14,276 bases of DNA, from contig JAEOSU010000055.1 of the NCBI GenBank assembly GCA_016840165.1, forward strand, positions 1-14,276, written 5' to 3'. The notes below the pieces were generated by a model. That model was not told the DNA's origin and did no database searches. It saw only the letters and a program-made list of their open reading frames with translations. Shown one piece after another: positions 557-5,994 of the stretch. This DNA is from Promethearchaeota archaeon (GTDB lineage Archaea > Asgardarchaeota > Lokiarchaeia > Sigyniarchaeales > SOKP01). Numbering within the stretch: the first letter of the stretch is position 1; every line of letters starts with the position of its first letter. The position numbers and the translations under genes are program-made.

Positions 557-1660
557 TTACTCTTTCGATTTTGCTGCTGCTTTAAGATTGACATAAGTAT
601 TTTCCAGAACATTAAGATATTCAATTAATACTTGATCTGCTTTTGATTTCTTCTCGTATTCTTGCTTAATGATGTTAATAAGATATTTAGGAAAGATTAA
701 TTCAACATAAAAATCGGATAGAAGAGCATAATATTCATTATTTCGATCATCTTGAAACACTTGAATCATTTGGCTCTCCCAAAGCATCTTCAATACCTCA
801 TCAATATCATCAACACCTTTCTTCTTGAGTTTTTCTAAATCATTCCGTGTAACGATTGCTGTGCGCAATAGACGAAGAGTTTCATAGACTTGGGGATTAA
901 TCAACACATCAATTATCGTAAGATTATCATTTTCTGATGGTCGATAATTTTGGAAAAACTTTTTGGTTTCAGTGCGATAATCTCCAACAAGTTGCGATGG
1001 CAATCCTCTGTCAGCTGGATCTTTTAATAACTGTACGGGTGGAATCCTCATCATAATAATATCATTCGTAAGAAAGATTAATTCAGAGGGCATTCCTTTA
1101 ACCGATGCTTCCTTAATAATTTCACGTTTAATCAATTCAATTAGTACTCCTTCCAAATCAACGAATCCTTGCTTATATCTGTCCTTTAACCAAACCATTA
1201 GTTCTGATTTTGATACTACACCCTCTTCCCGCAATCGATTAACAATCATTCGTTTAATCTCATCTTGATAGGTCATTGCTAAGCGTTGTTCTGAATTTAA
1301 AGTAGGATATACTGATAGCCTTCTAAAAAGTGAGGGAATTAATTGAACATATGCTTCATCCTCTAGATTTTGCAAAATAATTCTAGAGGTATCAGCAAGT
1401 CCGCCCTCATAGGCATCAGGATCGTCATCTATATTCAAAAGTAAGAGAATATAGTACCCTTTCTCGGGACCAGTATAATAGGAAGCAATGTTTAAGGAAC
1501 CCACCATTAAACTGATCATTCCAGATTCTCCGCTATATTCATGTGTGCTGTATACCTGCATTAAGGTTTTATCAGTGACTGTGATCTCTTCTGGATATTT
1601 CGCCAAAATCTCGGTTCCAACACGTTCGTCCCATTTCATTAATACTATACCTACTGGCAT
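557..1660 (-). CDS. Asgard protein with N-terminal longin/uDENN-like domain and probable C-terminal winged-helix domains (NPRL2/C9orf72-like architecture)
   Basis: 367-aa ORF with GGAGGT RBS at 1674-1669. The N-terminus GIVLMKWDERVGTEILAKYP matches the first hairpin pattern of uDENN/longin domains (hydrophobic strand, F/W-D-x-x-x-G, x6, YP). Two wHTH-like segments follow: RLREEGVVSKSELMVWLK...LIELIKREII and LRLLRTAIVTRNDLEK...LKMLWESQMIQVF. Confidence 0.6.
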   Translation of the reverse strand: MPVGIVLMKWDERVGTEILAKYPEEITVTDKTLMQVYSTHEYSGESGMISLMVGSLNIASYYTGPEKGYYILLLLNIDDDPDAYEGGLADTSRIILQNLEDEAYVQLIPSLFRRLSVYPTLNSEQRLAMTYQDEIKRMIVNRLREEGVVSKSELMVWLKDRYKQGFVDLEGVLIELIKREIIKEASVKGMPSELIFLTNDIIMMRIPPVQLLKDPADRGLPSQLVGDYRTETKKFFQNYRPSENDNLTIIDVLINPQVYETLRLLRTAIVTRNDLEKLKKKGVDDIDEVLKMLWESQMIQVFQDDRNNEYYALLSDFYVELIFPKYLINIIKQEYEKKSKADQVLIEYLNVLENTYVNLKAAAKSKE

Positions 1661-4600: not shown

Positions 4601-5994
4601 AAGTCCTCTATATCATCCTCATCAAGATATTCATTATAGACAGCTACTTCATCAACTACTCCGTCAAAATAGGTATTTGTATGTTCTGTAGCCCCAATTG
4701 TAAAGGGACTTCCTTCTGCTTGATCCAAATCTGTTGCTCCAGACCATTTCAATGTATTATAATACCAATTGTCGTTAATTCTAACATCAACGGTACCAGT
4801 ATCTGCGTTAAATCTTACTGCGATGAAATTCCAAGCTCCTACTATTATATCATCCTCATTACCAAAATCAGTATAAGTATCAGCACCACTACCAGTGCAG
4901 TCGAGATATACATGAACTGTGCCTCTTAGTTGACCAGAAATTGAACCCGAATTAATTCCAATTTCGAAGTTATCATTAATAGAATCGCTTGCTTTCGCTG
5001 CGAAAACATTTTGAGTATAATGATTACTTCGAGCATTAGTTAATACATCAGGTTTAACCCATGCTGTAAGGGTGAACTCAGTGCTACCATCATCAAAGGG
5101 GTCATCTATATCCTGTAACCCATTAGTATAACTAACAAAATTAGTTCCATCAAATTCGATTCCAGATCTTACCTTTCCATTAGTAAAGGAAGGTCCCCCA
5201 GTTGGAATTCCATCTAGTTCGTTTCCTGTAGAATCTGAATATGAATTCTCAAAATGCGCTAAAAATTTTAATCTAGGATCAGATAATTCTTTTTCTGGTG
5301 ACAATGAATCATCCAAATGAAAATCTAATCCTTGTCTTATAAGTTGAGTTGATGCTAAACCTGTTTCAAGAACCGCTTGATATTCGGTTCCAACAGTAAC
5401 AGTAAGTGTTCCAAGACTATAATCACTAGAAAAGTTTGTGTTATAGCTTATTTGTTCAATTCCCTCATCGCTTTCATTATAATATAGAAAATAGGTCTTG
5501 TTCGTATTCGCAGAGACGTTAGCTATAAATGTTATCGTACAAGAATCAATAAAATCCCCTGTTCCTGTAGTATTCCACATTTGCATAGGGATTGGATCAC
5601 TCCATTCATCATTTCCCGTGGCATTAAAGCTAACGAGTCTCTCTGTATTTTGATGGTGTTCATTAGCTCGAAAAGTGAAATATACATCCATCGGTTGATA
5701 TCTATCGATACCTTCAGTCTCTTCTAAAACAAATCCGATTCGATATCGATATGTTTTATTCCACCAAATTGAAAGATCATACTTATCTCCAACATGATAC
5801 ACGTCCGATGTTTTTAATTCAAGTCCTTCAAAATTCATTGGATTTTCAACCATATCATCGCTATCTGTAGTTGAATCAACGCGAGCCATTGGACCTCCGA
5901 GATTAAAATTAAAGAGTGAAAAACTTATCGGCACGATAAAGGTTATCAATAAGATAGTCAAAGTTGTTAATTTTTGTTTTAATTTTTTATTCAT
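1660..5994 (-). CDS. Large single-pass cell-surface glycoprotein: signal/anchor, DUF2341-like domain, LamG/concanavalin-A-like domain, prealbumin/carboxypeptidase-regulatory-like and Ig-like repeats, C-terminal TM and ~75-aa cytoplasmic tail
   Basis: 1444 aa. Basic then hydrophobic N-terminus; WWNKTYRYR...YFLYYN (DUF2341-like); LamG motifs GIEFDG, FTLTAWVKP, WNFIAV, FTIGA, YFDGVVDEVAVYN; LVPEATITVYN...TDQNGRTIF; four GxGxY-type beta repeats (EIGGGLYNL, GSPGSYRF, DLGNGLYSL, DEGDGTYTI); many N-x-S/T sequons; TM FYFLMIVGAAVAVVGSLVAY followed by basic residues. Confidence 0.85.
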   Translation of the reverse strand: MNKKLKQKLTTLTILLITFIVPISFSLFNFNLGGPMARVDSTTDSDDMVENPMNFEGLELKTSDVYHVGDKYDLSIWWNKTYRYRIGFVLEETEGIDRYQPMDVYFTFRANEHHQNTERLVSFNATGNDEWSDPIPMQMWNTTGTGDFIDSCTITFIANVSANTNKTYFLYYNESDEGIEQISYNTNFSSDYSLGTLTVTVGTEYQAVLETGLASTQLIRQGLDFHLDDSLSPEKELSDPRLKFLAHFENSYSDSTGNELDGIPTGGPSFTNGKVRSGIEFDGTNFVSYTNGLQDIDDPFDDGSTEFTLTAWVKPDVLTNARSNHYTQNVFAAKASDSINDNFEIGINSGSISGQLRGTVHVYLDCTGSGADTYTDFGNEDDIIVGAWNFIAVRFNADTGTVDVRINDNWYYNTLKWSGATDLDQAEGSPFTIGATEHTNTYFDGVVDEVAVYNEYLDEDDIEDFKLGSMPSTIQSISTINELENGEVFSRYKIDWTPAFDMYTSDICTFYYDYNLWSIKRSIYFENEFNYTTDSMFALNTNYDFSIVDEHTDLLYLYDGNLQKDITTAGFLAENYTIVHNAPDSSKDAVGMFIESFGVSDTNHMNISYFKGDVLYDNGIVQFLSGSINDLDNSVGNSSYKLIVDFWELAGSVNTSGNLDNAGMINYFDNMLLTLRVDANVYIYEQDSFFYNLDVNVTDIDNNLVPEATITVYNASDYGISWSQDTDQNGRTIFNRLEGGVYVVNVSYTKNSKTLTVTTPQQIELNETEVDTYGVYYLEFTNIQMTSLNLTINRVNNLGEFQEYLEGAEVSFYIDSGSGKEFISAEYADAVGNVVFRWQNFTKPSDGNVTFSIKWFVATPTNVTALGDLDGEVVGNTNVTFYFHVGNSSVVNCVFGNTFVSNLEFTVYPDPDFNKMLGEILYFQVNFTYIQDGTLINPVEGATVSYNVKLGISNVNTQNLYFTEIGGGLYNLTIDTSNPVELGGADWFSENDYLIEVDAFRPGFISGEISTSFILDPRSSSLVSSETELTAYWGEMLTVDVVYTDISFGGNNPIDSADVDFSVIGVPTLVGSLNPTGSPGSYRFELISSQFPTSDSYTLQITANKQNYQEKSLFIDINVLAIRTLINDSVGIYKTANLPFRETSIYYFTYIEESSSSGLAGSELRTFEWTKEVSGSVVDSGAGFLNDLGNGLYSLDFDTSSKEIAIYTIIFNIEKENYAQRGGIIILNIIPREIDPSIQTGYIIQTVSGNDLTISLDLNDKINSSAIVGADVSITLQGQTFDFDDEGDGTYTITIPASSLPNAFFLSETISATITVDNQYYYSEEIDGSIVVNLVEIFPGFPMFYFLMIVGAAVAVVGSLVAYRTIQKARIPTFVKKVREMSKNIKGRKSISDSLLYPSKEEYIVKELGEKWEMLGLSLDDILGIERKKGKKMPEIPESEGGNI

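Follow-up and report, generated by a model that had tools for sequence, protein, structure and literature searches.

Why should the gene of a giant surface protein overlap, by a single base, the gene of a small soluble protein, and do the two products act as one? This question is raised by a DNA stretch of 14,276 nucleotides (nt) from a Promethearchaeota archaeon (Lokiarchaeia; Sigyniarchaeales; SOKP01), contig JAEOSU010000055.1 of assembly GCA_016840165.1, which in its whole length is called here the window. On the minus strand, to which all coordinates of the pair refer, it carries the gene for a 1444-amino-acid (aa) single-pass surface protein, P0002 (1660..5994; assigned from its open reading frame, Pfam domains and hydropathy), followed by the gene for a 367-aa cytoplasmic module, P0001 (557..1660; open reading frame, homologs and AF2 model). 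In the explanation that we favour, the two genes would encode the two halves of one membrane-spanning unit. That surface protein and module are physically coupled seems to us highly probable; the whole statement, a split receptor-adaptor unit with a GTPase platform, is put forward with modest confidence, and its GTPase step, which draws on the gene neighbourhoods of relatives and on the roles of longins elsewhere, more tentatively still.

The two genes and their junction

The stop codon of P0002 (TAA, 1662-1660) and the start codon of P0001 (ATG, 1660-1658) share one base and form the sequence TAATG (1658..1662). A Shine-Dalgarno-like site, GGAGGT (1669..1674), is embedded in the last codons of the first gene and, read from 1674 to 1669, stands 9 nt ahead of the A of the P0001 ATG. 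A first-pass annotation, made without database searches, had called attention to both the overlap and the embedded ribosome-binding site, and both are indeed found in the sequence. Among 29 related split pairs, the one-nucleotide overlap recurs in 17, while 5 have zero gap and 6 a gap of 1-3 nt. This result clearly indicates that the tight junction is a conserved feature and not the product of chance. Most orthologs of the large protein end in EGG or GG, and this may be explained by the fact that a ribosome-binding site embedded in the coding sequence would produce such residues. The best reading of the junction is that P0001 would be made by translation coupled to that of P0002. One metatranscriptome run contained 8% of the sampled sequence words.

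The hydropathy profile of P0002 has only two peaks, one at residues ~9-30 (5905..5970), which would be a signal peptide or an anchor, and one at residues ~1341-1363 (1906..1974), which corresponds to a predicted transmembrane (TM) helix. The tail that follows (77 aa, residues 1368-1444, 1663..1893), delimited by alignment, conservation and the predicted interface described below, starts with K-A-R-I-P after the TM helix and has a net charge of +4. Given the two peaks, the positive inside flank and the position of all the NxS/T sequons before the TM helix, P0002 is predicted to be a type I single-pass surface protein with a signal or anchor. The sequons are 26, compared with 19.5 expected from composition, and for this reason the label of glycoprotein is plausible and only mildly supported.

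The predicted ectodomain contains a LamG, or concanavalin-A-like lectin, domain at residues 302-462 (4609..5091), which matches PF13385 (Laminin_G_3) with 49.5 bits against a cut-off of 27.6 (E 6.6e-13). At residues 692-761 (3712..3921) there is a putative immunoglobulin-like (Ig-like) or transthyretin-like stalk repeat, to which CarboxypepD_reg and Big_1 give weak matches (E 3e-4 to 5e-4), under the Pfam cut-offs; the same stalk families are also assigned to homologs of P0002 in precomputed Pfam data. Therefore, the LamG ectodomain, the single C-terminal TM helix and the long tail of the first-pass annotation stand, and its Ig-like stalk is left with sub-threshold matches.

Natural fusions and conserved pairing

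A search of 1.84 billion cluster representatives (clusters at 50% identity) showed that, in the representatives nearest to P0001 (55-64% identity), the module is the C-terminal part, of about 360 residues, of proteins of 588-2548 aa. In these fusions an ectodomain is followed by a TM helix, by the same tail motif as in P0002, by a linker of about 25 aa and then by the module. When the search was limited to longer proteins, 71 matches of 644-2000 aa were obtained, mostly with this ectodomain-TM-tail-module layout, and many of the ectodomains carry LamG, CarboxypepD_reg or DUF2341 domains. A tree of 260 modules comprises 193 split and 67 fused forms, and 66 of the latter fall in one clade. Since the fused forms belong nearly all to one clade, fusion (or fission) took place once or twice and then spread. 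The natural fusion is the strongest evidence for the link between P0001 and P0002.

Of 400 genomes of the phylum, 347 have the module, as a rule with several copies each, and tandem arrays that repeat every 5.5-6.5 kb are frequent. At 30 close loci the upstream gene always ends at the module start (30/30), and the conserved tail is seen at its visible end in 26; in the other four, the stretch that was read contains only an acidic repeat extension. At 20 larger loci, nearly every module lies directly behind a protein of 1200-1860 aa that carries the TM-plus-tail motif, and one of the genomes has two fused genes. The pairing is still present at module identities of 39% and 26%; at the locus of a homolog with 28% identity, a neighbour with TM plus tail is absent. 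A more distant set of 12 loci covered four other families and a second family of the window's own order. In 7 of these loci a TM protein bearing the motif, as recognised by a pattern match, stands directly beside the module, in either gene order. The pair is thus retained in at least six Asgard families, and the synteny that the first-pass annotation had proposed to test extends well beyond the genus.

In the genome from which the window comes, all six proteins that match the TM-plus-tail pattern adjoin paralogs of the module (contigs C6, C9, C34 and C86). Three of the paralog clusters of this genome (C86:17458-23843, C6:19514-30705 and C9:43-13154; loci L066-L068) contain one to three surface proteins each beside a divergent module paralog. 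These surface proteins have a related tail, KYPxxVRKVRK, and are followed by a protein of 650-745 aa ending in K-x-x-F-W-x-x-K-L, which in one case has an N-terminal TrmB winged helix. The C6 cluster also encodes a 548-aa Ras-like GTPase. A different output is seen in two distant homologs of the module, P0166 and P0168, whose polypeptide continues after the module with a SIR2_2 domain and TPR repeats, at variance with the fusions to surface proteins.

Fold of the module

The AF2 model of P0001, built on an alignment of 52 diverse homologs (A1), has a predicted local distance difference test score (pLDDT) of 95.3 and a predicted template modelling score (pTM) of 0.89. It suggests five successive parts: a longin domain (residues 1-120; 1301..1660; AF2 model, VIA and conservation), a first winged-helix domain with the invariant R205 (residues ~121-206; 1043..1300; VIA), a helical linker with the conserved P207, F236 and Y239 (residues 207-239; 944..1042; models and conservation), a second winged-helix domain (residues ~240-322; 695..943; profile match and VIA) and a C-terminal helical hairpin (residues 323-367; 560..694). 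According to the complex model described in the next section, the linker would be part of the tail-binding surface and the hairpin its core.

The secondary structure of the first part follows the longin order b-b-a-b-b-b-a-a (E2-11, E15-22, H30-43, E47-53, E56-62, E69-76, H81-97, H104-120). In VIA, an exhaustive structural search, the first match for this domain was a GATOR1 chain, 8fw5_B, with Z 12.0 and a root-mean-square deviation (rmsd) of 2.7 Å over 118 aligned residues; the Vamp7 longin (Z 11.2) and a Lokiarchaeon longin were among the next ones. Over NPRL, Vamp7, Lst4 and Sec22, Z was 10-12 for about 105-120 residues, with an rmsd of 2.7-3.6 Å. Residues 121-203 matched the MarR/ArsR-type winged helices of RosR and SrnR (Z 9.6), and residues 240-322 an ArsR repressor (Z 8.5), in addition to a profile match of residues 248-317 to PH1932 (E 3.5e-5). 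On the basis of the model, P0001 has a longin fold followed by two winged-helix folds. The first-pass annotation had described a soluble partner that starts with a longin-like hairpin and had expected winged helices: P0001 has no TM segment, the hairpin corresponds to strands 2-11 and 15-22 of the longin fold, and the AF2 model, Foldseek and VIA bear out the longin and winged-helix assignment.

Searches by other routes returned little. P0001 has nothing significant in Pfam and NCBIfam and, in a single-sequence search of the PDB, nothing at E up to 10; PADLOC reports nothing for either P0001 or P0002, and a search of the Atlas by features gave unnamed Asgard clusters only. The close homologs of the module are 806, with lengths of 201-643 aa.

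The tail diversifies with the module and is predicted to dock on it

Column conservation in P0002 amounts to 0.58-0.69 for the last 144 aa and to 0.22-0.49 for the ectodomain, so the tail is the best conserved stretch of the large protein and the ectodomains vary, a contrast that the first-pass annotation had proposed to look for. Within the tail, conservation covers the first ~57 aa (RIPxFVKKxR ... SLLYPSKEE ... W..LGLSL..ILG), after which comes a variable basic linker ending in EGG. In one genus (loci L001, L008, L016 and L018) a long acidic repeat, rich in P and E, is inserted between the conserved part and the C-terminal EGG. In an alignment of 30 tails, fused forms included (A2), P1372 and K1376 are invariant and W1412 is kept in at least 90%. 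A search with a tail profile found at least 260 proteins, all from Asgard archaea where the source names them, with ectodomains that include LamG, pentaxin, Big_1, SpaA and invasin-type domains.

The distances between tails and those between modules are strongly correlated (Mantel r 0.85, a value reached in 0 of 5000 permutations). Moreover, in five genomes with tails of the KH type, the modules behind these tails group in a separate clade that leaves out the remaining modules of those genomes. Tail types thus diversify in step with the module paralogs.

The complex between tail and module was modelled from alignments A1 and A2 in three runs, with three controls. The score was 0.77, above the 0.14 of the best control; a multimer model of the tail with the 367-aa protein was among the checks proposed in the first-pass annotation. 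In a calibration, 58 of 80 solved complexes and 2 of 110 mismatched pairs came up to the mark for this score, figures that are rough here, own alignments having been used. The three runs share at least 82% of the contacts, and the pLDDT of the partner is at least 75. The predicted interface involves tail residues 5-56 and module residues 200-213, 229-241 and 318-360, with the lowest-error contacts at module residues 325-356, in the C-terminal hairpin; the longin domain lies outside it. Half of the ten near-invariant columns (at least 90%) of module residues 121-367 are found within the 38-residue interface (Fisher p 0.009). An independent AF2 model, built for residues 1202-1642 of the natural fusion P0123 (pTM 0.83), has the tail as two helices with pLDDT 79-97, values of 45-51 in the linker and high ones in the module; such a pattern of confidence would be expected if the tail were packed on the module. 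The models therefore support binding of the tail to the module without demonstrating it, and the site of docking has its support in models only. The earlier proposal that the tail recruits the longin protein is thus retained as to the link, which has on its side the fusions and the complex score, and changed as to the contact, which is predicted at the C-terminal helices and winged-helix region and not at the longin domain.

A longin face predicted to be free and the GTPases nearby

We suggest the following arrangement. P0002 would expose the LamG domain and Ig-like stalk outside the cell and keep the conserved 77-aa tail inside, where P0001, with its cytoplasmic longin, two winged helices and helical hairpin, would be delivered by coupled translation. 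The tail, folded as two helices, would dock on the C-terminal half of the module, that is on the end of the first winged helix, the linker helix and the hairpin, and would thereby fix the module under the membrane with the conserved face of the longin left free. This face carries W10, G15, P23, H40, S60 and G64, which are near-invariant in the 52 sequences; they lie away from the predicted tail site and so suggest a second partner. The face would most likely be a platform for a small GTPase or for a second longin protein, and the surface protein might in this way be tied to a GTPase switch for its placement, sorting or signalling, in the outside-in or the inside-out direction.

The gene neighbourhoods of relatives point to a particular GTPase. 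It is about 350 aa long and consists of an N-terminal longin-like part and an Arf-like domain (PF00025, E 4e-19). At five loci of the family it lies between tandem cassettes, and at locus L031 two such GTPases follow the module. A hand comparison of coordinates within the family placed about 38 of the ~41 best-scoring orthologs on the same contig as a module gene and at most 6 kb from it, including those of four genomes of the window's own genus. In the distant set, the longin-Arf-like GTPase adjoins the module in 6 of 12 loci. Stand-alone longin paralogs of about 130 aa occur in 4 of the 12, not all of them among the six with an adjacent GTPase. These small longins (L056, L057, L061 and L064, as well as C4:20910-21344 in the genome of the window) match the longin of the module with E 1e-29 to 1e-35; in the distant lineages their genes are often neighbours of those of the module and its GTPase, and they could be its partners in a longin-longin dimer.

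A more complete scheme would be a receptor-longin-GTPase pathway, in which binding by LamG or contact between cells alters the hold of the tail on the module, and the longin face then recruits or switches a longin-Arf-like or Rag-like GTPase. We regard this full pathway as rather unlikely. If true, it would represent a prokaryotic forerunner of the longin adaptors that couple the tails of membrane proteins to Arf and Rag switches.

Several points weigh against the split receptor-adaptor unit with its GTPase platform. The longin-Arf-like GTPase is absent beside the cassette of this window. A dedicated copy was sought on the window's contig and beside the modules of its genome and was not found: the two longin-Arf-like copies of this genome, which are of another subtype or elsewhere, are encoded on contigs C53 and C48, neither of them close to a module gene. 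Likewise, no GTPase adjoins the module at L045, L054, L055, L059, L060, L061 and L065. The small-GTPase link drawn in the first-pass annotation is consequently an indirect one, backed by the gene neighbourhoods of relatives, and a GTPase partner in this window is hypothetical. The longin domain also has no conserved arginine at the finger position, as approximately mapped, of the longins that act as GTPase-activating proteins (GAPs). The co-diversification of tails and modules follows equally from the two genes duplicating as one unit, and the function of fused and split forms could differ. Finally, the predicted docking relies on two structure predictors, and ligand binding by LamG is putative.

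Alternative explanations

Some of these points fit a different explanation, in which the module is a structural or biogenesis partner (an anchor, a lattice organiser or an assembly chaperone) of abundant coat proteins in archaea without an S-layer, and no GTPase switch is involved. The large proteins are multi-copy, often in tandem and variable in their ectodomains, as coat or adhesin proteins are; many cassettes, this one included, have no adjoining GTPase, and no catalytic residue is kept in the longin domain. Cultured Lokiarchaeia have surfaces covered with complex proteins of unknown identity, and in one of them cryo-tomography revealed many complex surface proteins instead of an S-layer (PMC9834061). 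We nevertheless judge this explanation unlikely, considering that the near-invariant longin residues lie away from the predicted tail site and that one subtype of GTPase is retained beside the cassettes in many genomes.

The two ArsR/MarR-type winged helices raise the possibility that the module is a membrane-tethered transcription regulator, which would bind DNA at the membrane, as ToxR-type proteins do, or after release of the tail. One source labels a fused homolog as an ArsR-family regulator, and the protein with a TrmB-type winged helix mentioned above lies downstream in one paralog cluster of the same genome. The charge of the module argues against this: its isoelectric point is 4.9 (5.2 is the median of the family), and the net charges of the first and second winged helices are 0 and -4. 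Furthermore, much of the surface of the winged helices and hairpin is taken by the tail in the model, and a form fused behind a 2000-aa ectodomain would need DNA to be brought to the membrane. In the eukaryotic proteins of nearest shape, NPRL2/3 and ESCRT-II, winged helices mediate protein contacts. A DNA-binding role therefore seems improbable to us.

To the same low level of probability we assign a proto-GATOR1/Rag system, in which the module would be an NPRL2-like GAP for a Rag-like GTPase encoded nearby and the surface protein would be incidental. This GTPase (8640..9575, minus strand; PF04670, E 9e-24) has 311 aa, a size that fits a GTPase domain plus a C-terminal domain, and its gene lies 2.6 kb upstream of that of P0002; among solved structures, the best relative is 8yl2, a RagA-like GTPase from a Lokiarchaeon (E 3.9e-35). 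At the level of fold, the best matches of the module are chains of GATOR1. Besides the VIA result, the top five Foldseek matches of P0001 are all GATOR1 NPRL2/NPRL3 (E 8.5e-5 to 5e-4), with alignments of 306-437 columns but a whole-chain TM-score of only about 0.2 and an rmsd of about 20 Å. Among the nearest eukaryotic shapes in the ESM Atlas are Inturned (TM-score 0.40) and NPRL2/Npr2 clusters (0.33-0.38 over 164-193 residues). Judging from the models, NPRL2/NPRL3 is the closest known architecture.

By its sequence, on the other hand, P0001 would not be a member of the NPRL2/NPRL3 family: neither NPR2 (PF06218) nor NPR3 (PF03666) of Pfam is listed for it at E up to 1, with the limit that the HMMER filters drop most matches above ~0.1. 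The arginine finger of GAP longins is taken by us to lie in the b4-b5 loop, as R78 does in NPRL2, with an approximate mapping. In this loop, residue 67 is K in 7, S in 7, V in 6, T in 5 and R in 4 of the 52 sequences. No column of residues 1-120 has R or K in at least 80% of them, and the only near-invariant arginines of P0001 are R205 and R266. Because no arginine finger is conserved, a catalytic role is not assignable to the longin.

The proximity of the Rag-like gene is also less telling than it looks. In 11 of 21 loci of the family the cassette has an ortholog of this gene at a distance of 1.5-4 kb, but outside the family none is found beside it, either at the level of the order or further away (L045, L054, L055 and the distant set). 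A PfkB kinase, ribosomal protein S25e and a methyltransferase are encoded between the Rag-like gene and the cassette, not all in one direction, and the conserved block also includes a RuBisCO-like gene downstream. Given the synteny confined to the family, the mixed orientations and the housekeeping genes in the block, we read this proximity as plain inherited gene order and not as a functional tie. It is doubtful that the Rag-like gene belongs to the P0001/P0002 unit, and as a dedicated partner it was downgraded. The GAP hypothesis, moreover, leaves the fusions to surface proteins unexplained. In the same genome, an island at C48:17810-24313 (L069) contains a second Rag-like GTPase gene directly before that of a longin-Arf-like GTPase, and close by the genes for a PAS/GAF protein and for a protein of 312 aa with a uDENN-like FGP hairpin at its start.

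That the split is an artefact, either a frameshift of sequencing or assembly that broke one fused gene or a programmed frameshift that joins the two products, is suggested by the fused relatives and by the base shared between the two frames but is hardly credible, given that split forms are the majority of the modules compared and the fused ones a separate clade, that the 120 closest homologs (79-100% identity) are nearly all of 360-380 aa and most of them aligned in full length, that the junctions are kept with their Shine-Dalgarno-like site and ATG in many independent split sequences, which rules out an assembly error, and that no slippery heptamer is present at the junction and a TAA of the second frame stands 7 nt upstream of the ATG, which rules out a programmed frameshift.

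Other genes of the window

At one end of the window (3-416, minus strand) the contig stops inside a gene whose orthologs are similar to the large subunit of RuBisCO (PF00016, E 1e-43 in L034) and are kept downstream of the module across the family. A small ThiS/Urm1-like protein ending in GG (9707-9988, minus strand) adjoins a ThiI/THUMP protein (10097-11317, minus strand), and the two are likely a sulfur-carrier and tRNA-thiolation pair. Two membrane proteins whose C-terminal domains have hexapeptide repeats and are acyltransferase-like are encoded by abutting genes (11384-12121 and 12122-12991, both on the minus strand), which look like a tandem duplication. A gene on the plus strand (13219-14109) encodes a protein of 296 aa, almost entirely coiled coil, with a CxxC...CxxC motif similar to a zinc ribbon at its end.

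Comparison with known systems

Asgard archaea have dozens of small GTPases and of longin or roadblock proteins without known partners. In the cultured strain MK-D1, according to Tran et al., the genes for GTPases do not as a rule share operons with those for roadblocks or longins, so that matching them is difficult (PMC10933270). The pair described here gives one of these proteins a testable role. The family offers a physical wiring, made up of a 57-aa tail motif on major surface proteins, a predicted docking surface and one subtype of GTPase that is adjacent in many relatives. If the longin face engages a GTPase, a membrane-protein tail, a longin adaptor and a small GTPase would be combined in a prokaryote, and this would bear on the origin of the eukaryotic trafficking adaptors.

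Full-text searches of the literature returned no paper describing the coupling of a longin module to surface proteins. Liu et al. (10.1101/2020.10.19.343400) report, in the passages drawn on here, Asgard longin proteins similar to NPRL2, of which some also resemble NPRL2 in the C-terminal domain and many are fusions with further signalling domains, two-component ones included. P0001 probably falls in this broad class (asCOG class) of NPRL2-like longins; the same passages contain no pairing or fusion with giant surface proteins, no conserved tail and no dedicated GTPase neighbour. A 2025 study described longins with a GP motif and an arginine finger in Asgard archaea (PMC12290439). In the register of the GP hairpin of these GAP longins, the b1-b2 hairpin of P0001 has an aromatic residue and a conserved G and P. 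W10, G15 and P23 are kept in 47-51 of the 52 sequences, and the residue after G15 is mostly V, T or A and is P in 6 of 52.

Among eukaryotic systems, the most similar in layout is GATOR1, whose subunits NPRL2 and NPRL3 (Npr2 and Npr3 in yeast; a GAP for RagA) have, as is predicted for P0001, an N-terminal longin followed by a helical and winged-helix C-terminal part. NPRL2 has about 380 aa and is therefore of similar size. P0001 differs from these proteins in having neither a Pfam match nor a conserved arginine finger, and in the whole-chain TM-score of 0.2-0.4. A further difference from GATOR1 lies in the C-terminal half, for which a contact with a surface-protein tail is predicted and which the fusions link covalently to such a tail.

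The clathrin-adaptor protein (AP) complexes, with their sigma subunits and the N-terminal domain of their mu subunits, and other longin-fold binders of cargo or SNAREs also place a longin fold under a membrane protein, with Arf-family GTPases in control of the system, and AP2 sigma and AP3 sigma are among the VIA matches of P0001 (Z 9.4-9.8). However, AP complexes are heterotetramers that bind short linear motifs, whereas here a folded tail of 57 aa is predicted on the non-longin half of a single protein. MglB with MglA in bacteria and archaea and Ragulator with the Rag GTPases in eukaryotes are examples of a roadblock/longin fold that serves as a platform for Ras-superfamily GTPases, with adjacent genes in prokaryotes; MglB, LAMTOR MP1-p14 and Asgard roadblock proteins match P0001 with Z 8.5-8.9 in VIA. 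These are small soluble dimers without a membrane-protein partner, whereas in P0001 the putative platform is extended by two winged helices and has a surface protein as its partner. The signal recognition particle (SRP) receptor provides a last parallel, since the longin-like SRX domain of SR-alpha (Z 8.8 in VIA) binds, at the cytoplasmic face, a membrane-anchored partner of the Arf-like family, SR-beta. In that receptor the anchor is the GTPase itself; the unit proposed here would instead be anchored by the giant surface protein, through a contact predicted to lie elsewhere than on the longin.

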